Positions 2,522-23,403 are shown, counted from the stretch's first letter. The stretch is DNA of 57,357 bases from an uncultured Erysipelotrichaceae bacterium (GCA_902773675.1 CACYFN010000008.1:1-57357), one strand, 5' to 3'. The notes: generated from the letters alone by a model not told the origin. Made by a program: numbers and translations.

Positions 2522-2535
2522 AAGATAAGATGTGA

Positions 2536-4332
2536 GTGTTTATGAAGTTAGATAAAAGAAAATTAATAATACTATTATTTCCTTTGTTAATTTTGTTGGT
2601 ATTTGAATATCCATATTATTGTTTTAATAGTTCAATAATTATTTCTTTATTAATAATATATAGTATTTATTTTATATTGTTATCTATTTTGAAAAAGGTT
2701 AAGATTGCTGTATTATTAATGGGTATTTTAATATTTTTTATGCAGATAATTAATATTGGAAAGATTCATTTTATTGGAGATCCACTTTATATGACGGATA
2801 TTTTTTATACTGGTGATATGAGTGAGATATTAAATTTAATTAAGGATGATTTAGGTAATACTGTTCTTATATTATTACCAAAAATACTTATTATATTATT
2901 AATTGTTATTTTAATTATTGTATTTAGTTATAAGATTAATATTATTGTTAAAAATAATAAGAAAAGGATTACTATTTTTAGTATAAGTTTTATTATTATG
3001 TTATTTTTATTTTTACCTATTAGTTTTAGTAATAAGTTTATTTTAAAAATATTTTATAGTGATGATAGTTATTTAAATAAAATTACTATTGATTCTGGTG
3101 ATGATTATTATAAGACTTATGGACATTTATCTGGTATGTATGGTAATTTACTGGAAACAAGGGTTTTTGAACCAGATAATTATGATAGAGATAATATTAC
3201 TAAAATAGTTCAAAATAGTAAAAAAGAAAGTGATAATACTTTTAGAAAACCTAATATTATTGTTATATTTTCAGAATCATTTTTTGATATTTCTAAGATT
3301 GATGAAGTTAAGTTTGATAAGGATATTACTTCTAATTATCATAGATTAAAGGAAGTTGGTTTATCTTTTGAAATGATTGCTCCTTTCTATGGAGGAATGT
3401 CGGCTAATGTTGAGTATGAGTTTTTAACTGGTGGTTCTACTAATTATTATAGTAGTTCTTATGTACCTTATATGGAACTTTATAATAGTGATAAGTATTA
3501 TAATGCTCCAAGTATTATTAGTGAACTTAGAAATAATGATTATTATACTAAGATTGTAGCTTATTATAGTCCAAAGTTATATAATTGTGGTAGAGTATAT
3601 AAATATATGGGTGTTGATGATGTAGATTTTATTACTGATGTAGATGATAAATATATTAAGGGACAATATGTATCTGATAAATATGTGGTTGATAATATTA
3701 TTAGTGAGTTAGAAAATAAGAAAGATGGTTCTTTATTTTATATGACTATGACTATGCAATCTCATATGCCTTATTTAATTAGTAAATATGATAATTATGA
3801 TATTGATATTGTTAGTTCTAGTTTAGATAGTAAATATAATGATAGTTTAAAGTCTTATGCACAGGGAATATATGATGCTGATATGGAATTGGGTAGATTA
3901 TATGATTATATTAATACTTTAGATGAAGATACTATTATTGTTTTTTATGGTGATCATTTACCTTATTTAGAAGCTTTTAATTATATGGATTACTTTAATA
4001 CTAGTGATGAAAAAACTAATATTTTAAGAAAGTATAATACGGAGAGTTTAATAGTAGCTAATTTTGATATTAGTAGTTTAAAGAAAGAAAATTTAAAATA
4101 TTTGGATGCTGATTTATTAAGTAGTTATATAATAAATCATATGAATATAGTTGTTAGTGATTATTATAGATGGTTATATAGTACAAGAAATATTATTGGT
4201 GCTTCTAATAGATATATAACTATTGATCAAGATGATTATATTCATTATACTAATAAGTTAAGTGGTAAACAGAGTGAATTAAATAATTTAAGGCGTAATG
4301 TTCAATATAGATATTTTCATGATATAAAGTAA
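2536..4332 (+). CDS. LTA synthase / sulfatase-family membrane protein
   Basis: N-terminal TM helices; KPNIIVIFSESF, GGMSANVEYEFLTG, TMQSHMPY, FYGDHLP motifs. Confidence 0.85.
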   Translation: MFMKLDKRKLIILLFPLLILLVFEYPYYCFNSSIIISLLIIYSIYFILLSILKKVKIAVLLMGILIFFMQIINIGKIHFIGDPLYMTDIFYTGDMSEILNLIKDDLGNTVLILLPKILIILLIVILIIVFSYKINIIVKNNKKRITIFSISFIIMLFLFLPISFSNKFILKIFYSDDSYLNKITIDSGDDYYKTYGHLSGMYGNLLETRVFEPDNYDRDNITKIVQNSKKESDNTFRKPNIIVIFSESFFDISKIDEVKFDKDITSNYHRLKEVGLSFEMIAPFYGGMSANVEYEFLTGGSTNYYSSSYVPYMELYNSDKYYNAPSIISELRNNDYYTKIVAYYSPKLYNCGRVYKYMGVDDVDFITDVDDKYIKGQYVSDKYVVDNIISELENKKDGSLFYMTMTMQSHMPYLISKYDNYDIDIVSSSLDSKYNDSLKSYAQGIYDADMELGRLYDYINTLDEDTIIVFYGDHLPYLEAFNYMDYFNTSDEKTNILRKYNTESLIVANFDISSLKKENLKYLDADLLSSYIINHMNIVVSDYYRWLYSTRNIIGASNRYITIDQDDYIHYTNKLSGKQSELNNLRRNVQYRYFHDIK

Positions 4333-9293: not shown

Positions 9294-9307
9294 AAGGTAG
9301 TATTTTT

Positions 9308-9556
9308 ATGGATAATAATGATTATATTAAACGTGAGAAATTAATAATGGATATGGAATATTCCATTATTACAAATTATATAAAGTTAAGAAAAGAATCA
9401 CATATGTCACAAGAAAAATTAGCTAAGGAAACTAATGTAATTAGAACAACTATAGCTCGAATAGAAAAAAATATGAATTCACCACAACTTAAAACAATGT
9501 TAGAACTTTTAGAACCTTTAGGTTATACACTTGATATTGTACCAATAAAAAAATAA
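9308..9556 (+). CDS. XRE-family helix-turn-helix regulator
   Basis: LRKESHMSQEKLAKETNVIRTTIARIEKNMNSPQLKT. Confidence 0.85.
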   Translation: MDNNDYIKREKLIMDMEYSIITNYIKLRKESHMSQEKLAKETNVIRTTIARIEKNMNSPQLKTMLELLEPLGYTLDIVPIKK

Positions 9557-9574
9557 AAATTTATTTTAAATTAC

Positions 9575-9609
9575 TTGAGATATTGTATCACATATGATAC
9601 AATGTTTTT
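9575..9609 (+). promoter_or_regulatory. sigmaA promoter overlapped by palindromic operator
   Basis: TTGAGA(9575)-17 bp-TACAAT(9598) with extended TG; perfect inverted repeat ATTGTATCA-cata-TGATACAAT 9582-9603. Confidence 0.65.
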
Positions 9610-9621
9610 GGGTGATACAAA

Positions 9622-10059
9622 ATGATTAATAAAGTTAAAAGTGTAAAAGAAATAAGAAAATTGATTGATAAGGTTATATTACCTGGATATACTTATAAGA
9701 CAAATTTTAGTTGTGCTGAATATTTAATTGAAATTAATTTTAGATTAATAATAAAAGCTAATCTAATTAAGAAAGCTGATAAAATGATTTATGAATTTGT
9801 TTTAGATACACAATTTTTAAATGAAAATATGATTTCTTATGAAGAATTAAAAATGGTAATGGATATTATAGAAATACTTGAAGATAATAGAAATTTTACT
9901 TTGTTACGACTGAAAAAATATACTGTTTTAGAATATGAAAAAGAACAAGAAGAAAGAGAAAAAAAGAGTGAAATGATGTTAGAAGCATTGAAAAGTATGT
10001 TTATGAAAAGACTTGAAGTTAATATTAGACAAGAAGAGGAGGAAATTAATATTAAATAA
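9622..10059 (+). CDS. Hypothetical protein
   Basis: 145 aa ORF with ggtga RBS; no recognised motif. Confidence 0.6.
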   Translation: MINKVKSVKEIRKLIDKVILPGYTYKTNFSCAEYLIEINFRLIIKANLIKKADKMIYEFVLDTQFLNENMISYEELKMVMDIIEILEDNRNFTLLRLKKYTVLEYEKEQEEREKKSEMMLEALKSMFMKRLEVNIRQEEEEINIK

Positions 10060-10734
10060 TATTGAAAAATATAATGAGAATACTTTTGAAAGTATAAAAT
10101 AATTTGATGAATATGGTAATGAATTTTGGAGTGCTAGAGATTTGCAGAAAGTTTTAGAATATAAAGATTGGAGAAACTTTAAAAAAGTAATAGATAAAGC
10201 AATAGAATCTGCAAATAATAGTGTTTCAGAAAAAAAAGTTTGGGTTGTTGAAGTCAACAAGCCTATAAAAACTGGAAAAGGTAAAGAAGAATTTATTATA
10301 GATTATAAATTGTCAAGATACATATGTTATTTAATTGTACAAAATGCAGATCCAAGTAAAGAAGTTGTTGCATTAGGACAAACCTATTTTGCTGTTCAAA
10401 CTAGAAAACAAGAAATAACTTTAGAAGAATATGAATCATTATCAGATGATGATAAGAGATTGTATCAAAGAAACTTAATTAGACAAGGTAATTATACTCT
10501 TCAACATGTTGCAGCTAATGCTGGTGTTAGAAATATGGCTTAATTTCATAATGCTGGGTATAGAGATTAACGGCTGATGATATTTTTAAAAGAAAGAAAC
10601 TTCGCTATAGAGAAGATATATTAGATAATATGTGTGAGGATGAATTAGTTGCAAATTTATTTAGAATAAATCAAACAAACCAAAAACTTGAAAGAGAAAA
10701 GAGGCAATTGGATCAAAATGTAAAAGTGATTTGA
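10049..10734 (+). pseudogene. dinD: DNA-damage-inducible protein D (DinD family) pseudogene
   Basis: FESIK*FDEYGNEFWSARDLQKVLEY, YKLSRYICYLIVQNADPSKEVVALGQTYFAVQTRKQE, MA*FHNAGY, then frameshifted TADDIFKRK..YREDILDNM..ELVANLFR; stops at 10100 and 10541; ATA in place of a start after gaggagg. Confidence 0.85.
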
Positions 10735-10945
10735 AATTATATTTAAGCATTGTATCAGACTTGATATAGTGTTTTTATATGAATAAATAAAATTACGAAT
10801 AATAAATTAATAAAAAGTTTCTAATATATATTAACTTATATAAATAAGAATAATAGTTTTAAATAAATAGGAAATATAAAAAAAATATAGTATAATATAA
10901 ATGATTGATTAAATATTAAGATGAAATTTGATATGGGGTGAAATA

Positions 10946-11380
10946 ATGATAAATCGAATATTAATGGAGTTATATGATGATTATAAAAATAATAATATTG
11001 ACTCTCTTGTTGAATTTTCAAAAAAAACATTTCCATCAGATGGTACTGATAAATTATTTGTTGGATGTGTATTAATTATGTTTTCTAGGGCAAATGGTTT
11101 TAAAGCTAGATATGATTGTAATAGAGAGCAATTATTAGAAATAGTTAAATCAATAAAAGAGAAAATAGGTAATTCTAATTTATTAGCATTTTATATTAAT
11201 AGATTAAATGAAAAAAAAGGAATAAATAAGTATTTTAGGGATTTATTTGATGATGCTAATTTAGATAAATATGCTGATTTAATTATTGAATATTTGGATC
11301 AATTTAAACCAAGGTTTATTGAAGATATAAAAAGATATGAAAATAAAATAGATGATTTTATTAAAAATAATAATAATTAA
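10946..11380 (+). CDS. Hypothetical protein
   Basis: Open frame; ATG 10946 after ggggtg. Confidence 0.6.
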   Translation: MINRILMELYDDYKNNNIDSLVEFSKKTFPSDGTDKLFVGCVLIMFSRANGFKARYDCNREQLLEIVKSIKEKIGNSNLLAFYINRLNEKKGINKYFRDLFDDANLDKYADLIIEYLDQFKPRFIEDIKRYENKIDDFIKNNNN

Positions 11381-11503
11381 TATTATTTTACTGAATATTT
11401 AATTATTGATGAAATTATCTATGAATTAATAAAAAGTATTGATTAAGAATAAGGTTGTATTTTTCTTAATTATGGATAGATAGTTTATAAATGAGGCGTT
11501 AAT

Positions 11504-11983
11504 ATGGGAGTATTTATTTTTGCTTTTACTGCAACGGGAAAGACAACTGTTGCTAAAAAATATGAAAATGTTATAGATTTGGAATCGACTTATTACAAAT
11601 ATATTAATTATACTGATGATGAGAGCCTTAAAAGTACAGCGAGAAGTATAAATGAAGAATGGCCAAATAATTATTTTGAAGCATTAAAAAATGTAAAAGA
11701 TAAATATGATTATATTTTAATTGCTGATGAAATATGTAATGAATTTTTAATTAATAATAAATATGATTATTGGTATGTATATCCTAAAAGAGAATTAAAA
11801 CAAGAATATTTAGATAGGTGTAAAAAAAGAGGTAACAACGAAGAATTTATTTATTGGTATTCAAAATTATGGGATGAGTGGATAGATAAATGTGAAGAAG
11901 ATAAATGTGCATCAAAAAAAATAAAATTAAATAGTAATGAATATTTGGAAGAGAATATTTGGAAGATATACTTCCAAATTTGA
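11504..11983 (+). CDS. Small P-loop NTPase/kinase-like protein
   Basis: N-terminal AFTATGKTT Walker-A-like motif; YP..ELKQEYLDR..RGN. Confidence 0.65.
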   Translation: MGVFIFAFTATGKTTVAKKYENVIDLESTYYKYINYTDDESLKSTARSINEEWPNNYFEALKNVKDKYDYILIADEICNEFLINNKYDYWYVYPKRELKQEYLDRCKKRGNNEEFIYWYSKLWDEWIDKCEEDKCASKKIKLNSNEYLEENIWKIYFQI

Positions 11984-12128
11984 AATAAAAACTTGTGATA
12001 ATAAACGTTTAAGATTTAAAAATATAGATGCAAATCTATTGTATTAAATTATAGTTGTAGTATAAAATTTATAGAAAGGAGTTACTAATATATGTGAAAA
12101 ATCACATAATTAGATTTTTTTAGATAAT

Positions 12129-12848
12129 ATGATTAAAAATTTTAATGTTAATATTTTGGAAAAAGAGTCAAATAAATTAACTTTATCTAATTATCTAAAG
12201 TTAAAAGTTAAACAAAATATTTCTCAAGAATTACTTATAAAAATGAAAAAAAGACTTGAATTCAATTATAATCTCAATATGAAGTATTTTGATTCTTTAG
12301 ATTATAGTGAATTTGCTGAATATGTTAATAATTTTATGAAAAGAAATAAATTTGTTAGTGTAAGTGATTTAACAAAATATAAAGGTATACCAGGTATTTA
12401 TATTATGATTTTTGATGAATATAAACAGGCTTATATTGGTTTATCAGAACATGGTATTAAAGAAAGAATTCAACAACATTGGAATGAAAAAAAGGAGGCT
12501 GAAAGGCTAATTTTTGGACAAGTGTTTAATTCAATCCTTTCCGTTGATTCGTTTGGTGCTTTGGATAATACACGAATTTTTGTTAAAACTGGATGTAATC
12601 TATATAAAAATGAAGAACGTCTTGTTTATAACTTTGATAAAAGATTTCTATTGAATAGAACAGCTGGAGGTATAGGCAATATTGATACTTATACGGATGG
12701 TAAAATTTATTCACAAGTCGCTATAGTTTCAGAAATGAAGGTAAGAGATTTTACTCCTTTTATAGATGAAAAAAAATTATATGATCAGTGTAGTGAATAT
12801 GATATTATGATGTATGAAAGTATATACAAAAGAAAAGATATTGAATAA
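12129..12848 (+). CDS. GIY-YIG nuclease family protein
   Basis: PGIYIMIFDEYKQAYIGLS..IKERIQQH; later E and LLNRT.GG. Confidence 0.75.
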   Translation: MIKNFNVNILEKESNKLTLSNYLKLKVKQNISQELLIKMKKRLEFNYNLNMKYFDSLDYSEFAEYVNNFMKRNKFVSVSDLTKYKGIPGIYIMIFDEYKQAYIGLSEHGIKERIQQHWNEKKEAERLIFGQVFNSILSVDSFGALDNTRIFVKTGCNLYKNEERLVYNFDKRFLLNRTAGGIGNIDTYTDGKIYSQVAIVSEMKVRDFTPFIDEKKLYDQCSEYDIMMYESIYKRKDIE

Positions 12849-13110
12849 TATAATGGAGTCAATTATGGATATTAAAAATGAAGTATTAATATATGAATAT
12901 AAAGATGGATTAACTGGAGTTGATTTTAAATTTATAGATGAAGATGTTTGGTTAATTCAAAATCAATTAGCTAATATATATAAGATAACACAAGAAAATA
13001 TTTCAATGCATATATCAAATATTTATAAAGATAATGAATTACCAAGTTCAACTAATAAGAAAATCTTATTAGTTTAAAAAGAAGATAATCGAGATGTTAA
13101 AAAAATATAT
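12814..13110 (+). pseudogene. RhuM-family N-terminal fragment
   Basis: EDVWLIQNQLANIY..TQENISMHISNIYKDNEL..STNKKILLV*KEDNRDVK parallels ENIWLTQK...STIRKFRIVQKEGNREV of the intact copy at 14015; nonsense codon and truncation. Confidence 0.8.
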
Positions 13111-13152
13111 AATTAAAATGAATGATATTAATATAAATTGTGAGGTGAAAAT

Positions 13153-13788
13153 ATGGATTCAATAGAATATTGGGATAAAGTTGCTAAAGAAAAAACTTTT
13201 ACTACACCATTTCAATTGGAACTTTTTAAAGAATATGTAGGTAAAGATAAAAAAGTAGTAGATATTGGTTGTGGTTATGGAAGAATATTAAAGGAGTTAT
13301 TTGATAATGGGTATACTAATTTATTAGGAATTGATTTTTCTAATGAGATGATAAAACTTGCTAAAGAAAAATATTCATACATAAATTTTAAAGTTGCTAA
13401 TGGAAAAAATTTAGAATTTGAGAATAATAGTATAGATTCTATTATATTGTTTGCAGTACTTACTACTATATATGATAGTAAAAGTCAACAAGATTTGATT
13501 AAAGAAGTATATAGAGTGCTTAAAAAAGATGGTATTTTATATGTAAATGATTTTTTATTGAATGATAGTGATTTATATTTGAAACGATATAATAAATATA
13601 AAAATATATATCATGAATATGGTGTTTTTGAATCTAGTGATGGAGGAGTTTTTAAACATCATAGTGAAGAATATTTTAATGAATTATTAAGTGATTTTAA
13701 GTGTGAGAAAGAAAAAGTTTTAAAATTTAAGACTATTAATGGACATACTTCAAATGGAGTTTATTATTTAGGTAGAAAAAGAGGTTAA
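13153..13788 (+). CDS. Class I SAM-dependent methyltransferase
   Basis: VVDIGCGYGR motif I, GIDFSNEMI, EVYRVLKKDG. Confidence 0.9.
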   Translation: MDSIEYWDKVAKEKTFTTPFQLELFKEYVGKDKKVVDIGCGYGRILKELFDNGYTNLLGIDFSNEMIKLAKEKYSYINFKVANGKNLEFENNSIDSIILFAVLTTIYDSKSQQDLIKEVYRVLKKDGILYVNDFLLNDSDLYLKRYNKYKNIYHEYGVFESSDGGVFKHHSEEYFNELLSDFKCEKEKVLKFKTINGHTSNGVYYLGRKRG

Positions 13789-13793
13789 ATTTT

Positions 13794-14014
13794 AAAATAA
13801 AACTAATATAAATTGGTTAATAACAATTTAGTTAAGAACATTCTTAAAGTATTATAAAATAAAGAAAAAGTAAAAAATACATCTTTCATATTTTTTATAT
13901 AATTAGCAAAAAAATGATATAATTTATCAAAAATAGCTAAATATTTGTGATTTTTTGTTAGGGAGTTGGAAAGTGATTACAAAAGTTAAGAACATATAAA
14001 AAGAGGTGAATATA
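13794..14014 (+). repeat. Cassette junction 1 (rbgA 5' copy lacking start codon + leader)
   Basis: aaaataaaactaatataaattggttaataacaatttagttaagaaca ... tgattacaaaagttaagaacatataaaaagaggtg. Confidence 0.85.
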
Positions 14015-15073
14015 ATGAAAAAAAATGAAGTGACAATTAGATCTAGTGCAGCCGAATATTTAATTTTTATTGCTGCAACAGGTGATGATAAAGAATCAAT
14101 TGAAGTAAGATATGAAGATGAGAATATATGGTTAACACAAAAAATGCTTTCAACTTTATATAAAGTTGAAATAAACACAATTAATTATCATATTAAAAAA
14201 ATCTATAGTGATAATGAATTAAGTGAAGATTCAACTATTCGAAAATTTCGAATAGTTCAAAAAGAGGGTAATCGTGAAGTATCTAGAGATGTAGTTCATT
14301 ATAATCTTCAAATGATAATAGCTTTAGGTTTTAAGGTTGATAATGATAGAGCTGTTCAATTTAGAAAATGGGTTAATGAAATAGTTAAAGAATATACTAT
14401 TAAAGGTTTTGCTATGGATGACGATAGGCTTAAAAATGGTGGTTCTATATTAACTGAAAAATATTTTGATGAATTACTAGAAAGAATTAGAGAAATAAGG
14501 TTGTCAGAAAGAAGATTTTATCAAAAAGTAACAGATATATATGCTACAAGTATAGATTATGATAAGGATTCTAAAACAACTCTTGAGTTTTTTAAAACGG
14601 TTCAAAATAAAATGCATTATGCTGTTTCTGGAAATACTGCAGCTGAAATAATATATAATAGAGCTGATGCAAGTAAAGAACATATGGGATTAACTAATTG
14701 GATTGATGCTCCAGATGGTAAGATTATGAAAAGTGATGTTGTAATTGCTAAAAACTATCTTAGTGAAGAGGAACTGTATTCATTAAGAAGAATTGTTTCG
14801 GCATATTTAGATTTAGCAGAATCAAGAGCAGAAAGACACATACCGATGACTATGGAAGATTGGTCTAATAGACTAGATGAGTTTTTAAAATTAACTGATA
14901 GAGAAATATTAGAAGATGCTGGAAAAATTTCGCATAGAATTGCATGTGATAAAGCTGAATCTGAATTTGAAAAATATAGAATAGTACAAGATCAACTATA
15001 TATTAGTGATTTTGATAAATATATAAGTGAACTTGAAAATTTAGAAGAAAAATCTGATGAAAGTTTTAATTAA
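14015..15073 (+). CDS. rhuM: RhuM-family (virulence RhuM) DNA-binding protein
   Basis: IRSSAAEYL.F, ENIWLTQK, YNLQMIIALGFKV, QFRKW, KGFAMDDDRLK, YFDELLERIREIRLSERRFYQKVTDIYA. Confidence 0.9.
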   Translation: MKKNEVTIRSSAAEYLIFIAATGDDKESIEVRYEDENIWLTQKMLSTLYKVEINTINYHIKKIYSDNELSEDSTIRKFRIVQKEGNREVSRDVVHYNLQMIIALGFKVDNDRAVQFRKWVNEIVKEYTIKGFAMDDDRLKNGGSILTEKYFDELLERIREIRLSERRFYQKVTDIYATSIDYDKDSKTTLEFFKTVQNKMHYAVSGNTAAEIIYNRADASKEHMGLTNWIDAPDGKIMKSDVVIAKNYLSEEELYSLRRIVSAYLDLAESRAERHIPMTMEDWSNRLDEFLKLTDREILEDAGKISHRIACDKAESEFEKYRIVQDQLYISDFDKYISELENLEEKSDESFN

Positions 15074-15076
15074 ATA

Positions 15077-15198
15077 AACTATTTCAAATTTTAAAATAGT
15101 TGAACTTATAAGAAATGCTTATAATTTGAATAATATTATTTGATATCCGTCGAATTCGACGGAATATGAATTTAAAGTGTTCAAATTTGAACACTTTA
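15077..15198. repeat. Array of back-to-back palindromes
   Basis: aactatttcaaa-t-tttaaaatagtt; aacttataag-aaatg-cttataattt; aataatattatt; tccgtcgaattcgacgga; taaagtgttcaaatttgaacacttta. Confidence 0.85.
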
Positions 15199-15219
15199 TA
15201 AAAAGAGGGTGAGAAAAAT

Positions 15220-16338
15220 ATGAATAAAAATGAAAATACAAATAATCAAAAATATACAATAATATCATTTGTAGCTGTAAGCAATGAAAATGTAAATAAA
15301 TTTGTAGAAGAAGATAACAATAATAATATATTTATTAATGCATTTGATGATATATACTATTTAGTATTAGCGAATAAATCAAATTTAGACGAAAGATTAT
15401 TAGTAAATGACAATTATAGATATTTAAAGAACAGTTCAGAGATTGAAAATTTAAATAATACAATAAAAATTGATGATTTGCTAAAAAAGTATGTAGAAGA
15501 AAATGATAGATTTATTATTATACATAGTTATGCAAATGAATATGAAGAGTCATTGGCAATGAAATTATTTAAAAATATCATTAATAGTAATAAGGAATGT
15601 GTGAATGTATTTTTAATTCCGCCTACATTTACAGGTAAGGTTGATTTATTTCTAAAATTTAAGTATGAACTATTAAACTCATCAGCAAAAAATTATTATT
15701 TTGCTTGTGATGATATACTACCAAAACTTCCTTCAGATTTATCATTAGGACAGTTAAATGCATTTTTTTACAAATGTTTGTTTGAAATTGCATATAGTGT
15801 TGGAACAAATTTTAATGTAAGTGATATTTTAGATAAAATAATATCTAATGTTAAAACAAATATGAAAACTAATATATTTGAGTATGAAGATGAAGAATTT
15901 GGTAAAATAAAATTTGAATTGCTTGAGGATAGAGCGATAATTTTAGAACCTATAGTAATATTTGACAATAAAAATATCTATCCGGAAATATCATTTGATT
16001 ATAAAGGATGTGGACAAACATTAAGTGAATTTAAAAAAAATATTTCATCATATGTTAACGTTTTAAAAAATATAATAAGTAAAAAAGATGATATATTAAA
16101 TAGTTTATATGATAAAGCTTTAGAATTATATATTAATTGGGAAGAAGTAACTGAATCAAATATTGATTATGTAAAAGAGCATACTTCAATAAGTTTTATT
16201 GATATATATGATGGACAAGCAAATATTAAAGCAGCTGGATATGATAAAGATAAATTACTTTTAGGAGGTCATTTTATTGAGGCTATTATTGATAGTAATG
16301 AAATAGATTCTAAAAATATAGAATGGAATATATTTTAA
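15220..16338 (+). CDS. Hypothetical protein (cassette cargo)
   Basis: 372 aa ORF with gagggtga RBS; no confident family. Confidence 0.7.
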   Translation: MNKNENTNNQKYTIISFVAVSNENVNKFVEEDNNNNIFINAFDDIYYLVLANKSNLDERLLVNDNYRYLKNSSEIENLNNTIKIDDLLKKYVEENDRFIIIHSYANEYEESLAMKLFKNIINSNKECVNVFLIPPTFTGKVDLFLKFKYELLNSSAKNYYFACDDILPKLPSDLSLGQLNAFFYKCLFEIAYSVGTNFNVSDILDKIISNVKTNMKTNIFEYEDEEFGKIKFELLEDRAIILEPIVIFDNKNIYPEISFDYKGCGQTLSEFKKNISSYVNVLKNIISKKDDILNSLYDKALELYINWEEVTESNIDYVKEHTSISFIDIYDGQANIKAAGYDKDKLLLGGHFIEAIIDSNEIDSKNIEWNIF

Positions 16339-16355
16339 TGGATTAATAAAGTCTA

Positions 16356-16572
16356 TTGAATGAAAATAAAACTAATATAAACTGGTTGATTTCAATTTAG
16401 TTAAGAATATACGAAAGCCCCTATAAACAAAGGTGTTTCTCAAAATACATCTTGCCTGTTTTTAAGAAAAATGGCTAAAAATTGCAAAAAAATGCAAAAA
16501 ATAGGTATTTTTTTATTAAGAAGTTGCAAGTTGATTACAGAAGTTAAGAACATATAAAAAAGAGGTGAAATA
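16356..16572 (+). repeat. Cassette junction 2
   Basis: ttgaatgaaaataaaactaatataaactggttgatttcaatttagttaagaa ... ttgattacagaagttaagaacatataaaaaagaggtg. Confidence 0.9.
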
Positions 16573-17433
16573 ATGGAATTTAATTTTTTAGAGGAACAAG
16601 AAAAAATAATGTTAGCAAATGAACACATTAATGGGATAATAACTAAATATAATGAAATATTAATGAATTTAAGCGATAAAGAAAAAAATGTAATGCAACT
16701 TTATTACTATTTTAAAAAATTAGATACTTTTAAGTCGATGACACCAAAAGGTAATTATTGGGACGACAAAAGAGAAAAGTATATAAATAAAGGATTAGAA
16801 ATAATTAAAAATCTTGGAACAAAAACTTTTTCAAATATACATAGTTTAGATGAAATAAGAAAAAATGTTGATAGTTATATGAGTAATAGTGATTTATTAA
16901 ATATTATTACTAGTTTTTCTTTAGAAATAAAATCAGCATATAAAAAATATTGTGACTATGTTTATACTGTTTTACCTATATCGGGTATAAAAGAACTTGA
17001 AGAAAGCAGACATAGAGAAAATCAATATTTAAATAGTATTAATAATGGTGTATTTGCTACTGCAACAATGGAAAGTATTGAAAAATACATTGCTAGAGCT
17101 AATGTTGGTGGTATGATAGTTCATGGCAATGAAATTGAATATCCATCTAATCCATTTTTAAATATTAGTGAAGAAGGATTAACATTAATAAAACCTGTTT
17201 CAATATATTTAAGTAATGTTGATTTATTTGAACCACAATTTGATTATGAAATAGATTCTAATGGTATTCCACATTTTGTTTATGGAGGAGAATGGATTGC
17301 TCCACATGAAAAAGTTCCATGTATAGAAAAACAAACAACATATTTACCAACCTCATTCCTAGAAAATAATATAGTGTATTATCAAGAAAATGGTGAAATG
17401 ATTCAAATTAATAAAGAAATTAAAAAATTATAA
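16573..17433 (+). CDS. Hypothetical protein (cassette cargo)
   Basis: 286 aa ORF right after the leader RBS. Confidence 0.7.
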   Translation: MEFNFLEEQEKIMLANEHINGIITKYNEILMNLSDKEKNVMQLYYYFKKLDTFKSMTPKGNYWDDKREKYINKGLEIIKNLGTKTFSNIHSLDEIRKNVDSYMSNSDLLNIITSFSLEIKSAYKKYCDYVYTVLPISGIKELEESRHRENQYLNSINNGVFATATMESIEKYIARANVGGMIVHGNEIEYPSNPFLNISEEGLTLIKPVSIYLSNVDLFEPQFDYEIDSNGIPHFVYGGEWIAPHEKVPCIEKQTTYLPTSFLENNIVYYQENGEMIQINKEIKKL

Positions 17434-17450
17434 CAAAGGAGGTAATACTT

Positions 17451-17660
17451 ATGAATGAAAATAAAACTAATATAAACTGGTTGATATTGATTTAGTCTAA
17501 CTATTTTTGGACATCCCATAAAATAAGGAAAACTAATATTTTGTAATTACATTTTTTTTATGAATAATTACTAAAAAGTATTAAATAATTGTAAAAAATA
17601 GCCAAAAATAACATAGTATTTTTTACTTGGTATTGACGGTTAAACTTTTATAAAAATGAG
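17451..17660 (+). repeat. Cassette junction 3
   Basis: aaggaggt RBS, ATG AAT GAA AAT AAA ACT AAT ATA AAC TGG ttgatattgatttagtctaact ... tacttggtattgacggttaaact. Confidence 0.9.
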
Positions 17661-18599
17661 GTGATTATTTTGAATTTAATAGATACATTAAATACAAGTT
17701 ATGAATATGTTTGTGATAACTCCAGAAATGTAAAAATAAATTATGATAAAATTGATGATTTAATTGATCAGATTAATAACTCAAAAGTTGATTATTGGTT
17801 AGATCCAAATCCATATGGTTTAATGGATATGGATGTAAAAGAAATAATTAATTTCTTATTCATATATCATGCAATAGGAGATTATTGCTTTTGGGGAGAT
17901 CCTAAATGGGAAGTAAAAACAGATCTAGGTGTTATGGATGGGTCTTATGCAATAATGTACTTAATACTAAATAGATTTAAATCAAATAATAATTTTGAAA
18001 TTAGTTTTGATGAATTTAAAGAATTATTAAAAGGAAATGTAACAATTCCATTGTTAGAAGATAGATATCAAAATTTAGTAGAAATGAATAGATTTCTTAA
18101 ATCTAAAAATAAGTCATTCTATGAATTAATTAAAGAATTAAACATTGATAGTGAATTATTTGAATTTATAGTTAATAATTTAGATTATTTTAAAGATATA
18201 TCTAATTATGGAGGAAAAGAAATACTATTTTATAAAAGAGCTCAATTATTAACTTCTGATATTCTACATGTTAAAGAGAAGAAAGAAAATATTGAAGTAG
18301 ATTATTCTCATTTAATTGGTTGTGCTGATTATAAAATACCTCAAGTTATGAGATGCTATGGTATGTTAGAATTCAGTGATAGTTTAGGAGATAAAGTTGA
18401 TTCTAAAATAGAATTAAAAGAAGGTTCTGAAGAAGAAATAGAAATAAGAGCAAATACTTTAAAAGTAATAAACTATATATATGAAAGATTAGATAAAAAA
18501 TATTCTCGCATGGATATAAATGATTTTATATGGCTACTAGGTCAAAATAAATCTCAAATGACTAAACCATATCATAGAACATTAACAAAACATTATTAA
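17661..18599 (+). CDS. Queuosine salvage family protein (DUF2419/Qng1-like queuosine nucleotide N-glycosylase)
   Basis: YCFW, FYKRAQL, ADYKIPQV, EEEIEIRA, INDFIWL, PYHRTLTKHY motifs; start GTG 17661 or TTG 17670. Confidence 0.85.
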   Translation: MIILNLIDTLNTSYEYVCDNSRNVKINYDKIDDLIDQINNSKVDYWLDPNPYGLMDMDVKEIINFLFIYHAIGDYCFWGDPKWEVKTDLGVMDGSYAIMYLILNRFKSNNNFEISFDEFKELLKGNVTIPLLEDRYQNLVEMNRFLKSKNKSFYELIKELNIDSELFEFIVNNLDYFKDISNYGGKEILFYKRAQLLTSDILHVKEKKENIEVDYSHLIGCADYKIPQVMRCYGMLEFSDSLGDKVDSKIELKEGSEEEIEIRANTLKVINYIYERLDKKYSRMDINDFIWLLGQNKSQMTKPYHRTLTKHY

Positions 18600-18666
18600 G
18601 CCATATGCCCGGGCAACTATCTTGGTTAACTTGGTATTGGATTAGTCTAATTACGATAAATGACTT

Positions 18667-18703
18667 AAAAAAGGACGAAATAGTACTAAATTTCGCCTTT
18701 TTT
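18667..18703 (+). terminator. Rho-independent terminator (A-tract/T-tract, possibly bidirectional)
   Basis: aaaaaagg(a)cgaaat-agtactaa-atttcgcctttttt. Confidence 0.7.
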
Positions 18704-18704
18704 A

Positions 18705-18713
18705 TGCTATAAT
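18705..18713 (+). promoter_or_regulatory. Extended -10 promoter ahead of rbgA-copy ATG 18737
   Basis: TGcTATAAT, then ggagtga RBS and ATG. Confidence 0.6.
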
Positions 18714-18736
18714 TGAATAGAAATGGAGTGATTCCT

Positions 18737-18994
18737 ATGGATAATAGAACTAATATAAATTGGTTGATTACGATTTATAGTAACTTTTGGAGAAACTCTT
18801 TATTTATAAGGTTTTGCGAAGAATAACATCTTGCATGTTTAATATATAATATTATGAATTTTAATAAAAAATAGTCAAAAAAATATTATGAATTTTAATA
18901 AAAAATAGTTAAAAACGGCTAAAACAAGATAAAAATAACATAGGAATTATAGTGTTGATTACGACACAGTAACTCATGTAAAAGAGGTATGTTT
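18737..18994 (+). repeat. Cassette junction 4 (MDNRTNINW variant; contains 34-bp tandem duplication)
   Basis: atggataatagaactaatataaattggttgattacgatttatagtaact ... gttgattacgacacagtaact ... aaaagaggt. Confidence 0.9.
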
Positions 18995-19426
18995 ATGAAT
19001 TATAAATTGATAAAATCATCAAGTAAAGATATAGAAAAATTAATTGAATACAAAAAAAGAACAATCTTTGAATATGCTAAAGATTTACCTGATGATGAAA
19101 TTAATAAAATAAATAATTATGTAAAAAATAATGTTTTAAAATTACTTAATGATTATTCTAATATAATTGTAGATAATAAAGTAATAGGTTGTTTACTATT
19201 AACAAATAAAGACGATAACATATTGTTAGATGAAATATATATTGAACAAGAATATAGAAATAAAGGTATTGGAACAGATATAATAAAAAATGTAATAAAT
19301 GAAAATGATATAATATATTTATGGGTATATAAAGAAAACGTAAAAGCAATCTCATTGTATAAAAAACTAGGATTTAACGTGATAGATGAAACTGATTCTA
19401 GATATTATATGAAGTATAGCACGTAA
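18995..19426 (+). CDS. GNAT-family N-acetyltransferase
   Basis: EIYIEQEYRNKGIGT, LWVYKENVKAISLYKKLGF. Confidence 0.9.
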   Translation: MNYKLIKSSSKDIEKLIEYKKRTIFEYAKDLPDDEINKINNYVKNNVLKLLNDYSNIIVDNKVIGCLLLTNKDDNILLDEIYIEQEYRNKGIGTDIIKNVINENDIIYLWVYKENVKAISLYKKLGFNVIDETDSRYYMKYST

Positions 19427-19440
19427 AGGAGTTGATGTTG

Positions 19441-19670
19441 ATGAATGAAAATAAAACTAATATAAACTGGTTGAGAACAATTTAGTCAAGACCACGCCTA
19501 AATCTTTATAATATAAGGAAAAATCCCAAAATAGATCTTACATGTTTTATATAAAAATATGTTGAAATAAGTAAAAAATAGTTAAAATTGAGTATTTTTA
19601 AGTAAAAATTGCTTTGGAATTGATATGGTGAGAACGGCTAGTTAAGACCAGTAAAAAATGAGGTGAAATA
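19441..19670 (+). repeat. Cassette junction 5
   Basis: aaggag RBS, atgaatgaaaataaaactaatataaactggttgagaacaatttagtcaagacca ... tgagaacggctagttaagacca ... tgaggtg. Confidence 0.9.
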
Positions 19671-20509
19671 ATGGTAGTAAATGAAATTACAGTAAATGAT
19701 TATTTAACTAAATCAAATTTACCAGATAGTGACTACGTAATTAATCCATATGTTGGTTGTACACATGGTTGTAAGTATTGTTATGCATCTTTTATGAAAA
19801 GATTTACTGGTCATAAAGAAAACTGGGGAGAAACTGGGGAGATTTTATTGATATTAAAAGATGTAATAAACCGATCGATTTAAGAAAAATTTCAGGTAAA
19901 AATATATTTTTATCTTCAGTTACTGATTGTTATAATCAATATGAAAAAGATTTTTGTATTACAAAAAATATATTAGAACAGTTAATCGATTCAGATTGTA
20001 ATTTATCTATTTCTACAAAGTCAAAATTAATTTTAAGAGATATTGATTTATTAAAACAAATGAAAAATTTGATAGTTTGTATATCTATAAATACATTGAA
20101 TGAAAAGTTTAGAAGTGATATGGATAATGCAAGTACTATAAAAGAAAGAATGGATACATTAAAAGAATTGCACAATAATGGAATTTATACTGTATTATTT
20201 ATGTCGCCAGTCTTTCCTTATATAACTGAATGGAAAGAAATAATAGATCAGACAAAAGATTATGTTGATGAATATTGGTTTGAAAATTTAAATTTAAGGG
20301 GCAATTATAAAAAAGAAATCTTAGACTATATTAGAACTAATTATTCAGATTTATACTCAGATTATATTGATATATATTTAAAGAAAAATAATAAATATTG
20401 GAAAGATTTAGCTGAAGAAATAAATAATTATTGTAATCTAAATAACATTAATTATACAAATTATTTCTATCATAAAGAATTAGTTGAGAAGAAGAAAGAA
20501 GGTAATTAA
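19671..20509 (+). pseudogene. Radical SAM protein (spore photoproduct lyase-like family), frameshifted
   Basis: INPYVGCTHGCKYCYA (CxxxCxxC); 11-bp duplication aactggggaga at 19821-19842; removing one copy gives NWGDFIDIK..IFLSSVTDCY..ISTKSKLILRDIDLL continuous with ORF 20060-20509. Confidence 0.85.
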
Positions 20510-20981
20510 ATGATTGAAAATTTTTTAATAGAAGCAAAAAAGCAAACATACGCTAATGAAAATGCTCCAAAAATTGATAGTTCAAGATTGAATTCTAAAG
20601 ATTACGAATATAAAAAAGGTAATATGATTTATCATGATACCTATTTTGGTGGTACGAACTTTATTGGAGACGAACTTTATTGGAGAAGAAGTTGTTTATA
20701 TAGATAATCAAACATATTGGGCTATGAATTATTATGGAACAACTTTAGATGAAACACTAGGCGAAGAAGCTATGGATAAAGCTTTAAGACCAGCTCTTAT
20801 GAAAGTGGGAGAAGATGTTAACGTAATTCCTGTAAGAGGACCAAAGGAATTTATTAATGGTGAATATAAGTACACTTTTGAAATAAGAGGAGACATAAAC
20901 TGTTTTAATGGTATAGAGAGTGTATATAAAAATGATGTTAAGATATATGAATTAAGATGTACAGGTGGTTTAATTAAATAA
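20510..20981 (+). pseudogene. DUF5680-like protein, frameshifted
   Basis: FLIEAKKQTYA, YHDTYFGG, GEEVV, WAMNYYG, PVRGP, GG.IK; 16-bp duplication acgaactttattggag at 20654-20685 splits the frame. Confidence 0.8.
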
Positions 20982-21001
20982 AATTGAAGGAGTTGATCCA
21001 A

Positions 21002-21203
21002 ATGAATGAAAATAAAACTAATATAAACTGGTTGTAATTATTTGCAAAACTCCTATAAAATAAGGAAAAAACAAGTATATGCTTGTTACATAATTTAATA
21101 AAAATATAAAAATAATAATAAAAACAATTAAAAAAGTATCAAAAATGGCATAGTATTTGATACTTGGTATTGACGGTTAAAGTTTTAGTAAAGAGGTGGA
21201 AGT
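21002..21203 (+). repeat. Cassette junction 6 (left box apparently deleted)
   Basis: aaggagttgatccaa atgaatgaaaataaaactaatataaactggttg ... tacttggtattgacggttaaa ... gaggtg. Confidence 0.9.
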
Positions 21204-21689
21204 ATGCTTGATTTATCTAATATATATAAAATAACAAAACAAATAGATGAGCAATTTGCATTATATTATGGTAATGAAGAAGAAATAGTGCGAAAAAATA
21301 GATTAGAATTATTAGTTGAACTTGGTGAATTAGCTAACGAAACTAGATGTTTTAAGTATTGGTCTATAAAGCAAACAGGAGAAAAAGAAAAAGTATTGGA
21401 AGAATATATAGATTGTTTATTTATGACTTTATATTTTTCTAATATTACTGGCATATCATTAGATGAAGAATTTCCATCTTCATTAAATGGTGATATAATT
21501 GATACGTTTTTAAGTTTAAATAAATTCGCAAGTAGTATAAGTGTTGTACCTAAAAAAGAAGAAGTTAAAAAAATATTGGTAGAATTAGATCATCTTGCTA
21601 AACTACTTAATTTTACAATAGAAGATTTAGAAAGAGTTACAAAAATTAAAACTAAAATTATTGAAAGCAGATTCAATAGTGAGTATTAA
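21204..21689 (+). CDS. Dimeric (all-alpha) dUTPase
   Basis: LLVELGELANETRCFKYWS, VLEEYIDCLF. Confidence 0.85.
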   Translation: MLDLSNIYKITKQIDEQFALYYGNEEEIVRKNRLELLVELGELANETRCFKYWSIKQTGEKEKVLEEYIDCLFMTLYFSNITGISLDEEFPSSLNGDIIDTFLSLNKFASSISVVPKKEEVKKILVELDHLAKLLNFTIEDLERVTKIKTKIIESRFNSEY

Positions 21690-21705
21690 AAAGGAGTTGA
21701 TCCAA

Positions 21706-21936
21706 ATGAATGAAAATAAAACTAATATAAATTGGTTGATTACGATTTATTTAACCTCTTTAAGGAATCCTTTGTTTGTAAGGCTTTGCGGAATTTAACA
21801 TCTTGCATGTTTTATGTAATAATATGTTAAAATAGACAAAAATTAGTAAAAAATGACTATTTTTATTGAAAAATAATGGAGGAATTAGTAAGGTGATTAC
21901 ACCTTTTAACCCCCCCAGAGAAAATGAGGTGAAATA
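21706..21936 (+). repeat. Cassette junction 7
   Basis: aaggagttgatccaa atgaatgaaaataaaactaatataaattggttgattacgatttatttaacc ... tgattacaccttttaacc ... tgaggtg. Confidence 0.9.
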
Positions 21937-22521
21937 ATGAAAGATTATATATTTATAATAGGACCTAGTGGAGTTGGTAAAACAACATTTGCTAAAGGTT
22001 TATTTGAACATTATAAAGGTGTTTACTTTGAACAAAATATGATTCCTGAATTTGGTATACCTGATAATGTAGATGAAGGCAAATATGAAGAAGAAATATT
22101 GTGGGAAAGCTCTATTGAATTATTAAAATATTTCCATAATAAAGGAATTAAAAATATTATTGCTTTGGATTTTAATGATTTAAGAACTAGAGAAATACCA
22201 ACAACCTTTAAAGGTACTAATTTTATTACTCTTAAATTAATTTCATCTATTTATGAACAAAATAAGAATCAAATGTTAGAACGTGGTGAAAAAGGATTAG
22301 TTGATTTAGAGCTACTTGAAGTATCAACTAAAAAGATAATGAATAGAGAATTACTTCCTAATGAAGTATTATTAGATGTTGCTAATAAATCAAAAGAAGA
22401 AGTATTAAAAGAGGCAATTAATATTATAGATAATTATGATTGTAAATTAGATTATGAATATACAGAACCATCAAAAGAATCATTTTATTCTTGGGTTCAA
22501 AGTGATGGATTAAGGAAGTGA
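21937..22521 (+). CDS. P-loop kinase/AAA-family protein
   Basis: IIGPSGVGKTT Walker A. Confidence 0.75.
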   Translation: MKDYIFIIGPSGVGKTTFAKGLFEHYKGVYFEQNMIPEFGIPDNVDEGKYEEEILWESSIELLKYFHNKGIKNIIALDFNDLRTREIPTTFKGTNFITLKLISSIYEQNKNQMLERGEKGLVDLELLEVSTKKIMNRELLPNEVLLDVANKSKEEVLKEAINIIDNYDCKLDYEYTEPSKESFYSWVQSDGLRK

Positions 22522-22527
22522 TTTTTA

Positions 22528-23403
22528 ATGAATAATGAAGAAAAAAACTTACAAAAAACGAACATTAACTGGTATCCAGGTCATATGGCTAAAACCAAAA
22601 GATTAATAATTGAAAATATAAATTTAATAGATGTTGTATATGAGGTAATAGATGCTAGAATGCCTTATTCATCTAAGATAAAGGATATTGATAATTTTAT
22701 TAAGGATAAAAAGAGAATATTAATTATGACTAAAATTGATTTATGTGATATGGATGAAACTAATAAATGGATTAAATATTATCAAGGATTAGGTTATAAA
22801 GTAATATGTTTAAATTTAGAGGGTAATACTAATTTAGATAATTTAATTAAAATGACTACTGATATTATGAAGGAAGAGAATGAAAAAAGATTAAGTAAAG
22901 GTATGAAAGTTAGAAAGACTAGAGTACTTGTTGTTGGAATTCCAAATGTTGGTAAAAGTACTTTAATTAATAGATTAGTTGGTAAAAAGGTAGCTAATGT
23001 TGGTAATATGCCTGGTGTTACTAAAAATTTAAATTGGATAAGAATTAATGATAATATAGAACTACTTGATTCTCCTGGTATTTTATGGCCTAAATTAGAT
23101 GAAGAGAATGTTGCTTTTAATTTAGCTAGTCTGACTTCTATTAAGGAAGAAATATTACCTATTGATGAAGTTGTTATTTATATATTAAATACATTAAATA
23201 AATATTATTCTAATATATTAAAAGAAAGATATGGTATTGATTATATTAGTGATGATATAGAAGAAACTTTAGAAAGTATTGGTAGAATGAGAGGTTGTCT
23301 TGTACGTGGTGGGGTAGTTGATTATGATAAAGTTTATAGTGTTGTTATGAATGATATAAAAAGTGGATTAGTGAAAGGAATTACGTTTGATAGATATGAA
23401 TAA
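22528..23403 (+). CDS. rbgA: Ribosome biogenesis GTPase RbgA/YlqF
   Basis: INWYPGHMAK, DARMP.SS, TKID, GIPNVGKSTLIN, PGVTK, LLDSPGILWP. Confidence 0.97.
   Translation: MNNEEKNLQKTNINWYPGHMAKTKRLIIENINLIDVVYEVIDARMPYSSKIKDIDNFIKDKKRILIMTKIDLCDMDETNKWIKYYQGLGYKVICLNLEGNTNLDNLIKMTTDIMKEENEKRLSKGMKVRKTRVLVVGIPNVGKSTLINRLVGKKVANVGNMPGVTKNLNWIRINDNIELLDSPGILWPKLDEENVAFNLASLTSIKEEILPIDEVVIYILNTLNKYYSNILKERYGIDYISDDIEETLESIGRMRGCLVRGGVVDYDKVYSVVMNDIKSGLVKGITFDRYE

Follow-up and report, generated by a model that had tools for sequence, protein, structure and literature searches.

Genomic setting of the dyad array

The window that we analyzed, a 57,357-nt stretch of DNA from an uncultured Erysipelotrichaceae bacterium, is one whole contig of 57 kb (C8) from a 1.46-Mb genome (G000) that is 92% complete. 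The GC content ranges from 19 to 28% along the contig, and that of the genome is 23%. Genes for EzrA, SpoIID, RNase J, PriA, and Ffh, housekeeping functions of the Firmicute type, lie on the contig and mark it as chromosomal rather than phage DNA. The sequencing runs that hold the stretch are recorded as bovine gut metagenomes. One joint between 13879 and 15226 rests on only 21 letters on one side, and it is not counted as evidence here. The listed contigs of a DNA run from another study leave 15172-15197 uncovered, a hole that we do not treat as a finding.

Between 9.3 and 22.5 kb, the contig carries a row of gene cassettes with repeats of about 230 nt between them. The junction repeats open with the 5′ end of rbgA, copied as far as the Trp codon of that gene, and the cassette array as a whole sits inserted at the 5′ end of rbgA. 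Our subject is the 146-nt spacer inside cassette 1 (Table 1), which separates rhuM from the downstream gene P0001 and holds an array of five dyads. Compared with 40 relatives, the spacer DNA gave matches that were confined to the rhuM coding part, and the phage records held no match to the spacer. A remnant of a further rhuM gene lies 1 kb upstream, at 12814-13077, and carries yet another variant of the palindrome found inside rhuM.

Homologues of rhuM are present in 100/201 genomes of the window's family, and KilA-N homologues, from a protein sampling of 200 genomes of the family, in 80/201; tandem rhuM and kilA-N paralogues are common there. Homologues of P0001 were found in 2/201 family genomes, which are G000 itself and one weak match at E = 1.4e-4, and a comparison of upstream regions through P0001 homologues was dropped on that account. 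The Atlas model of P0001 has a weak FtsZ/tubulin-like fold (TM 0.45), too weak a likeness for us to name a family from these look-alikes.

Table 1. Features of cassette 1, the dyad array, and the upstream rhuM remnant, in window coordinates
Feature	Position	Strand	Details
Palindrome of the rhuM remnant ORF (12814-13077)	13050..13074		another compensated rhuM-type variant, 21/25 to rhuM-type cores
Cassette 1	13794-16572		two genes, rhuM and the orphan P0001
Cassette-junction repeat upstream of rhuM	13794..14005	+	counterpart at 16339-16572 closes the two-gene cassette
rhuM, 355 aa	14006..15073	+	Pfam PF13310, E 8.4e-113; PADLOC candidate defence PDC-S05, E 4.3e-152
rhuM-internal palindrome, codons STIRKFRIV	14233..14257		arms 12, spacer 1
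Dyad 1, free-standing, probably rhuM-type (AACTATT...AATAGTT)	15077-15101		arms 8, spacer 9; or 12 + 12 with one C/A mismatch
Dyad 2, possible rhuM-type	15103-15127		perfect core 15106-15124 (arms 7, loop 5); 25 nt with one mismatch; 9/10 pairs
Dyad 3, 12 bp, all A/T	15129-15140		perfect; chance level
Dyad 4, free-standing KilA-N-type, SVEFDG variant	15146-15163		perfect 18 bp
kilA-N-derived fragment with dyad 5 and the P0001 Shine-Dalgarno	15167..15208	+	39/42 columns to L178
Dyad 5, KilA-N-type	15173-15198		perfect 26 bp
P0001, 372 aa, orphan downstream gene	15220..16338	+	no Pfam family above cut-off, no PADLOC family

Statistics of the dyads

The original prediction described five dyads between 15,077 and 15,198, and all five are present. 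It also described these 122 nt as almost fully tiled by dyads. The dyads are real; the coverage is not beyond chance, with 122-nt windows that hold at least 100 nt in perfect dyads (arms of at least 6) falling in 13 regions of the genome vs 9-10 per shuffled genome (5 shuffles). Tiling by short AT-rich dyads is within chance for DNA as A+T-rich as this. The TGA separators between the dyads, also put forward as a feature, are unremarkable, as the 5 TGA triplets in 122 nt do not differ significantly from the 2.2 expected. Dyad 3 is at chance level because the 1.46 Mb contain 8,907 dyads with arms of 6, and no stable fold was found for it. Dyads 1 and 2, both imperfect, fold weakly (-3.4 and -3.0 kcal/mol, respectively).

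Dyads 4 and 5, the palindromes of 18 and 26 bp, far exceed chance. A composition-weighted dyad score of at least 6.2 is reached by 74 dyads in the genome vs 1-8 in each of 5 shuffles, and dyads 4 and 5 are the only pair in the genome to reach it within 40 nt of each other; the shuffles contain no such pair. Ranked among 4,809 dyads of the genome, dyad 5 is 28th, the palindrome inside rhuM is 47th, and dyad 4 is 71st, so that three of the genome's 71 best dyads lie within 1 kb. No second copy exists in the genome for dyads 4 and 5 (allowing up to 4-5 mismatches) or for dyad 1 (up to 2 mismatches), and dyad 2 has one 2-mismatch look-alike elsewhere.

Origin of the units

Comparison with coding sequences shows that the spacer is made of free-standing copies of gene-internal palindromes, of which two belong to the KilA-N type and one, or possibly two, to the rhuM type. 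A search of the palindromes against coding sequences, suggested by the original prediction, returned RhuM matches for dyad 1 and, weakly, dyad 2, and KilA-N matches for dyads 4 and 5. The families covered were RhuM and KilA-N, and no dyad could be linked to a Bro-N or ORF6N gene. As a description of anatomy, the predicted "collected set" of sites holds well, with genes for mobile-element DNA-binding proteins as their source.

Dyad 4 is identical in 18/18 positions to the SVEFDG-coding palindrome of KilA-N genes, while its flanks are unrecognizable. Searched for as an exact match, with each species represented by one genome, the 18-mer was found in 92 stretches, where arithmetic gives an estimate of about 9 for a random 18-mer in 596 Gb. 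Of these, 80 were fetched: 30 hold full-length-like KilA-N genes with SVEFDG in frame, 18 hold partial ones, and 32 have no such match. The last group comprises about 18 stretches of unrelated G+C-rich coding sequence and about 12 that retain only the palindrome with TTAAT/ATTAA ends. The 18-mer is in frame in KilA-N genes from many phyla, and all of the SVEFDG genes tested (4/4) are KilA-N by Pfam (PF04383, E 1e-20 to 3e-25), which bears out the earlier suggestion that SVEFDG is a KilA-N motif.

Dyad 5 belongs to a different KilA-N type. Its reading as KVFKFEHF from a Bro-N start motif was dropped, as kilA-N genes with KVFE[SF]EHF fit; one KilA-N subtype of the window's family carries KVFESEHF, and its DNA is related to dyad 5. 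A pattern scan for the dyad-5 type found 2 viral and at least 119 metagenome stretches, and the context is kilA-N coding sequence in 58/82 fetched loci. Within this type, the VFEFEH variant is carried by locus L178 and four others. Aligned with the L178 coding sequence, 15167-15208 has 39 identities, 2 mismatches, and 1 gap in 42 columns, and the score of the dyad-5 flanks alone is equaled by only 1 of 5,000 shuffles. These two results identify the segment with dyad 5 as 42 nt of kilA-N gene sequence. On each side, some 8-10 nt of coding flank remain, and the last bases of the fragment, AAAGAGG, now act as the Shine-Dalgarno sequence of P0001. In the 82 fetched loci, no coding kilA-N showed the exact centre that dyad 5 has (AAATTT). 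This single central difference renders the palindrome perfect and more symmetric than its coding relatives, and it is the only change in 26 positions of the dyad vs about 3/16 in the aligned flank.

Dyad 1, which had been described as a variant of the palindrome inside rhuM, indeed differs from it by 4 mismatches in 25, shares its outer 7 nt on both sides, and lies 819 nt away from it. It matches rhuM-type cores in 21/25 positions; 13 genome positions are equally good, and several of these are rhuM genes or fragments. In locus L020, dyad 1 is partly retained after the rhuM stop. By these matches, dyad 1 is probably a member of the class of RhuM gene-internal palindromes. Dyad 2 reaches 19/25 to rhuM-type cores, a level equaled at 182 genome positions and not significant on sequence alone; its length, ends, and centre fit, and its rhuM-type assignment may be called weak.

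The units of the array differ from the variants inside the resident rhuM (14233-14257) and inside the resident kilA-N gene on contig C15. A set of non-resident variants fits either relics of lost genes or sites for foreign members of these families, and the evidence that bears on this choice is given below.

Covarying palindromes inside rhuM and kilA-N genes

In both families, the palindrome lies about 70-85 codons into the gene, within the part that codes for the N-terminal domain, which in both proteins is of the DNA-binding type. The KilA-N-type unit has a constant centre, CGAATTCG (or GAATYT), constant TTTAA ends, and a self-complementary variable middle, and its site in the protein is F[NK]xxEFxx[IF][KR]. 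The RhuM-type unit is 25-27 nt long, runs AACT...AGTT or CAGT...ACTG around an A/T-rich centre, and lies at S[TV]xxxFxx[VT]; its centre is often asymmetric, with loops of 1-7 nt. Structure models, which served only to place the encoded residues, put the KilA-N palindrome at a helix (76-85) and the RhuM palindrome at the first strand (78-87) of a beta-hairpin following two helices.

Within the window's family, rhuM sites at the STIRKFRIV codons have perfect arms of 9-14 nt in 25/33 cases, and kilA-N sites, at which the palindrome differs per subfamily, have perfect arms of 8-19 nt in 23/31. Close homologues of rhuM retain the same palindrome, and in distant ones compensated variants take its place. 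In the Escherichia coli type strain, rhuM is located next to tRNA-Sec and has its palindrome at codons 70-78. A rhuM DNA query segment matches 845/5,426 complete E. coli genomes, of which the palindrome was inspected in the type strain only.

Pairing between the arms was quantified in homologues from viral contigs, chosen by protein motifs far from the site, together with the family samples. Across 72 distinct 42-nt kilA-N segments, 93.7% of cells pair vs 77.3% in shuffles (0/500 reach the observed value), and cells with changes on both sides number 186 vs 58. Across 90 distinct rhuM segments, the corresponding values are 83.6% vs 63.2% (again 0/500) and 304 vs 104. Because the sampled homologues are related sequences, these shuffle controls overstate independence, a weakness that does not extend to the slid comparisons and codon test given next. 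When the partner was moved by 1-3 columns, pairing fell to at most 62% for kilA-N and at most 41% for rhuM.

Codon choice follows the palindrome as well. The central Glu of the kilA-N site is GAA in 70/70 cases and never GAG, which elsewhere in the same ORFs is used in 392/1,533; the central Phe is TTC in 62/66 vs 180/652 elsewhere. This bias persists both in ORFs with GC3 >0.5 and in those with GC3 <0.3. Both palindromic Arg codons of the window's rhuM are CGA, a codon used in 0/21 cases elsewhere in the gene and at 4% genome-wide. Changes in one arm are compensated in the other; they alter the protein in a symmetric way and take precedence over codon preference. At the level of sequence comparison, covariation and codon choice together show that the gene-internal palindromes are selected as nucleic acid. 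Since codon choice is bent to the palindrome, the peptide is in part dictated by the DNA.

Several of these features favor a symmetric element at the level of DNA. The symmetry runs through the exact centre (the GAA and TTC codons above), where a hairpin loop would not need it. The constant centre and ends around a variable middle favor the same reading. Wobble pairs were used as a strand test, from which no clear strand asymmetry emerged: there are 55 G:T vs 31 A:C, and 32 of the 55 G:T come from one pair, so that with this outer pair set aside the counts are 23 vs 31. The lack of asymmetry likewise favors a DNA-level element. The asymmetric centres and 1-7 nt loops of the rhuM-type units are closer to what a folded hairpin would show than to a duplex site.

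Folding could also matter in RNA, where the units would be hairpins in a rhuM-P0001 co-transcript, with roles in processing, as an exonuclease barrier, or in translation coupling, and the in-gene palindromes would act likewise in mRNA. The spacer, taken as 166 nt, folds better than 200/200 shuffles (z = -4.2 as RNA and -5.4 as DNA), into separate short hairpins and no single long one. Co-transcription is likely, as the spacer has no + strand promoter or terminator. One RNA-library contig spans 14746-15202 and RNA-library contigs from three studies cover P0001, although all of this is contig-level coverage that may include DNA carry-over; the loops of the rhuM-type units fit hairpins, too. The two central base pairs of the KilA-N-type units speak against this, because they would be located in the loop and are nonetheless conserved against codon preference (GAG 0/70), as does the wobble count, in which G:U shows no excess over A:C without the one outer pair. 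In addition, Rfam gave 0 matches at E up to 1 for 13700-16700 on both strands, and no U-tract follows the stems on the + strand. We consider an RNA-level role for the units quite unlikely.

Free-standing copies in other genomes

Free-standing copies were counted within the fetched loci only, not in whole collections. In 548 kb of unbiased loci, 93/96 KilA-N-type palindromes are inside ORFs of at least 200 aa and 3 are outside. Among rhuM-type matches, 104/124 are inside ORFs of at least 250 aa, and some of the 20 outside lie at locus edges or in truncated genes. Free-standing copies are therefore a rare minority, yet they are recurrent.

The SVEFDG unit lies 20-40 nt past the stop of 90%-identical rhuM genes in L016/L100 and L099 (the flanks of L100 are letter-identical to those of L016, so these two are probably one genome), and the remaining 4 close rhuM loci lack it. 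In L303, a kilA-N gene is closely followed by two rhuM-type palindromes with 1 nt between them. Arrays of different KilA-N-type units occur in L115 (four, spaced by about 60 nt), L056 (three), and L053 and L052 (two each). Single units occur up- or downstream of such genes in L392, L334, L364, and L437. L088 has a unit of the SVEFDG type and then a relative of the dyad-5 type, the order seen in the window. Both units lie inside a kilA-N ORF that is decaying, immediately upstream of rbgA, in a locus of the kind found in the window. L120, with at least 8 copies at a 75-nt period, was rejected as a CRISPR array because its "spacers" resemble each other, and it is a tandem repeat. The expectation that comparable arrays would be found beside homologous genes was thus borne out in loci such as L303, L115, and L088, but they are uncommon, and the array is missing from 4/5 of the closest rhuM loci.

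A rival account of such copies is that they are functionless leftovers of deleted rhuM or kilA-N paralogues, whose palindromes persist or have been perfected by mutational bias rather than selection. The bias meant here is template switching within quasi-palindromes. Much at the locus agrees with this account, namely the short coding-type flanks on the units, the rhuM remnant 1 kb upstream, the frequency of tandem rhuM and kilA-N paralogues in the family, the decaying kilA-N ORF of L088 with its two units, the weakness of dyads 1-3, and both the rarity of free-standing copies and their absence from most of the close rhuM loci. Other observations are harder to accommodate. Dyad 4 keeps the exact 18 coding-type letters, and not merely symmetry, after its flanks were lost, and dyad 5 has changed at 1 position in 26 vs about 3 in 16 of its flanks. 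Comparable tandems are also seen on unrelated contigs. Partial kilA-N copies not situated at a locus edge number 16; the end of the copy falls no more than 15 residues past the palindrome in 8 of them, and the start no more than 10 residues ahead of it in 5, a clustering unexpected under random decay. We regard mere relics as a serious contender, though on balance rather unlikely.

The same clustering of partial-gene breakpoints beside the palindrome would be expected if the palindromes were recombination sites or hot spots, acted on by hairpin- or cruciform-specific enzymes or by strand exchange in the core, that shuffle rhuM and kilA-N halves; the array would then be a by-product or a landing pad in the cassette array. 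In all KilA-N-type units, the core and the ends are identical and only the middle varies; units of different types can stand in tandem, and the locus lies within a cassette array inserted at the 5′ end of rbgA. RhuM genes are also enriched beside the targets of programmed inversions, according to one report (PMC9881135). Against shuffling stands the observation that left and right arms nearly always match, whereas an exchange of units would yield hybrids, and the cassette junctions use another sequence. The contig has no recombinase gene; elsewhere the genome has three to four recombinase genes of the serine type and five of the tyrosine type, and no Y1 transposase was found in it at 92% completeness. 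Taken together, this makes a recombination substrate improbable as the main role of the palindromes.

A proposed symmetric DNA element

Our leading interpretation, held tentatively and at slightly less than even confidence, is that the units are DNA elements with two-fold symmetry, recognized either in cruciform form or by a symmetric protein, for which RhuM and KilA-N domains are the most plausible candidates, and that the free-standing units have been retained because they still work. The palindrome itself would be the functional unit. Its readers would most likely be the N-terminal domains of RhuM and KilA-N, in the fashion of operators, for which intragenic operators are a known precedent; alternatively, the element could act as an extruded cruciform. 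Given that tandem gene sets are common in the family, the units of the array probably come from deleted neighboring rhuM and kilA-N paralogues. Palindromes would outlast the loss of their genes, and dyad 5 would turn perfect, because they are still functional alone. The locus would then offer four sites of non-resident variants just upstream of the ribosome-binding site of P0001, and the array may serve as an operator-like or decoy block for RhuM/KilA-N-type proteins.

Constraint outside genes is suggested by dyad 4, kept at 18/18 without recognizable flanks, and by the recurrence of hairpin-centred mini-fragments. Counting against the symmetric-element reading are the rarity of free-standing copies, the 4/5 closest rhuM loci that have no array, and the weak folding of dyads 1 and 2. 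Because the array variants differ from those of the resident rhuM and kilA-N, the resident proteins may not read the array, and because no sigma-70-like + strand promoter overlaps it, classical operator action on P0001 is not evident.

A more speculative extension, which we consider a long shot, is that rhuM and kilA-N genes carry, where they code for the DNA-binding domain, at the KilA-N helix and the first wing strand of RhuM, the site to which domains of this kind bind, so that site and protein would change in a coupled way and give rise to many specificity classes. Arrays of foreign-class sites before an orphan gene could then be a tripwire or decoy that senses or titrates RhuM/KilA-N-type proteins brought in by phages or other mobile elements and switches the adjacent gene.

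Significance

Few genes are as common in prophages, defence islands, and restriction-modification loci as those for RhuM and KilA-N proteins, whose roles are, to our knowledge, largely unknown. A literature search (supplements excluded) found no paper on palindromes in rhuM or kilA-N genes or on such arrays. The conserved palindromes point to an undescribed DNA signal in widespread mobile-element genes. A palindrome that is compensated across phyla and overrides codon usage shows that these genes carry a second, nucleic-acid-level signal, and this bears on how they are controlled and exchanged, how their proteins find DNA, and how the many short palindromes adjoining them are to be interpreted. 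The novelty of the finding would shrink if the palindromes were plain operators. As the palindrome is present in rhuM of the E. coli type strain, the question is directly testable in a laboratory organism.

Comparison with known systems

Several familiar elements were considered for the array and set aside. No intrinsic terminator was called on the + strand in 13700-16700; the sole call, on the - strand, which has no gene at this position, is dyad 5 followed by a weak T-tail. The promoter scan found no + strand site in the spacer. A CRISPR array was rejected because the units differ from each other and nearly abut. Dyads 4 and 5 belong instead to the KilA-N gene-internal palindrome class, a class defined in this analysis.

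REPs are one sequence family with many copies scattered through a genome. Like REP/BIME-type repeats, the array is a cluster of short palindromes in an intercistronic spacer between co-directional genes; unlike them, its units are each unique in the genome and derived from coding sequence, and we rejected this assignment because each dyad of the array is single-copy in G000.

Integron attC sites are single imperfect hairpins of 55-140 nt, one per cassette, with conserved core sites that are read by IntI. The array resembles them in that structure is conserved more than sequence, in its association with gene cassettes, and in the plausibility of single-strand folding. It departs from them in consisting of several short dyads, perfect and separate from each other, that stand between the two genes of a cassette, with the junction repeats elsewhere, and the attC shape was rejected on these grounds. 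The contig carries no integrase gene: there is no tyrosine recombinase gene on it, and five untyped ones lie elsewhere in the 92%-complete genome.

Rickettsia palindromic elements are mobile insertions of 100-150 bp into unrelated protein-coding genes. They share with our case a palindromic DNA that is read through as protein, whereas the palindrome described here is ancestral and position-fixed in two families, and only its short free-standing copies look mobile or residual.

RhuM has been proposed as a toxin domain in loci linked to restriction-modification (PMC3710099), in passages that leave the palindrome unmentioned. The PADLOC candidate defence PDC-S05 covers single genes of the RhuM/ORF6N type, of which the window's rhuM is a full-length member. 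PDC-S05 is defined by the protein alone, and the palindrome and the free-standing arrays fall outside its description.

Bacterial and phage operators offer a further parallel. Phage lambda OR and OL are tandem operator arrays, and lac O2 and gal OI are intragenic auxiliary operators. In common with these, the locus has non-identical palindromes a few bases apart beside the gene of a DNA-binding protein and an extra copy in the coding sequence. It differs in that no promoter overlaps the array and that the units are not the variants of the resident genes. Moreover, binding is putative here, and the in-gene copy, in contrast to those operators, covaries throughout its family and shapes the protein.

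Gene Content of the Cassette Row

The rhuM gene and the orphan gene P0001, with the palindrome array between them, form one two-gene cassette in a longer row of gene cassettes, which are separated from one another by repeats of about 230 nt. The row also holds a GIY-YIG-type protein matching the PADLOC model UzuA, a Bro-N fragment, a methyltransferase, a queuosine-salvage protein, a GNAT protein, a DUF5680 protein, and a dUTPase, as well as a short ORF that is left over from the N-terminal region of a second rhuM gene and carries its own variant of the palindrome. Coordinates are collected in the table.

Features of the cassette row and of loci from other records
Feature	Record	Position (nt)	Detail
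Cassette row	window	9300-22530
Junction repeats	window	13794, 16363, 17458, 18741, 19448, about 21009, 21713
UzuA-matching protein	window	12129-12848	E 3e-58
rhuM remnant	window	12814-13077
Palindrome of rhuM remnant	window	13050-13074
P0001	window	15220-16338
True rbgA	window	22528-23403
rhuM-type palindromes	L303, viral contig	1498-1548
rhuM	L448, E. coli ATCC 11775	2237-3274
SVEFDG-type palindromes	L120, Chitinophaga record	1-600
KilA-N-type palindromes	L115, Saprospiraceae MAG record	215-422

The folds closest to the Atlas model of P0001 were FtsZ/tubulin-type GTPase domains, with TM scores of 0.36-0.46 by query. Tubulin-type proteins carry a glycine-rich signature; this motif was not seen in the P0001 sequence. 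Separately, contigs from RNA libraries (sequencing runs X15 and X17) link position 13879 to 15223-15226, joining a junction repeat to the start of P0001 with rhuM and the array absent. P0001 may be a separate cassette in some strains, a weak suggestion given that the shorter side of the joining contigs comprises only 21 letters.

Related Palindromes Outside the Window

Two palindromes of the type normally found inside rhuM lie 1 nt apart in the viral contig, one of each outer type (AACT...AGTT and CAGT...ACT), between a kilA-N stop codon and a terminator-like hairpin. The E. coli ATCC 11775 gene, annotated "virulence RhuM family protein" and adjoining tRNA-Sec, contains such a palindrome at codons 70-78 with one mismatch.

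Palindromes of the SVEFDG type, the KilA-N-type variant seen in the fourth dyad of the array, were found in several records. At the contig start of the Chitinophaga record, at least eight of them, with TTAAT/ATTAA ends, occur in a 75-76-nt tandem repeat. A CRISPR array was ruled out here because the stretches between the palindromes resemble one another. The Saprospiraceae record holds four different KilA-N-type palindromes, spaced about 60 nt apart with additional imperfect palindromes between them, in a region with no long ORF. A Burkholderiaceae and a Nitrosomonas record (L054 and L072) share the flank CCGTTCCAAT 5' of an SVEFDG-type palindrome, without a KilA-N ORF; this may be a piece of another conserved element.

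Junction Repeats and the 5' End of rbgA

The GTPase gene rbgA/ylqF (MNENKTNINW...) is copied in part at the start of every junction repeat, from its 5' end as far as the Trp codon. The true rbgA, which opens with MNNEEKNLQKTNINWYPGHMAK, stands at the end of the row, and in relatives rhuM often lies immediately 5' of this gene. The row looks like the result of repeated insertion into the 5' end of rbgA, at the AAC-TGG site, each insert supplying a substitute gene start. Aligning the junction repeats showed that the stretch of about 20 nt 3' of the TGG in each (e.g. GATTACGATTTAGTTAAGAAC) reappears just 5' of the next gene's ribosome-binding site, and that the two copies covary between junctions. 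At the corresponding site in another locus (L032), about 18-47 nt 3' of the rhuM stop, lies a palindrome with 14-bp arms around CTGG, which resembles a complete attachment site.
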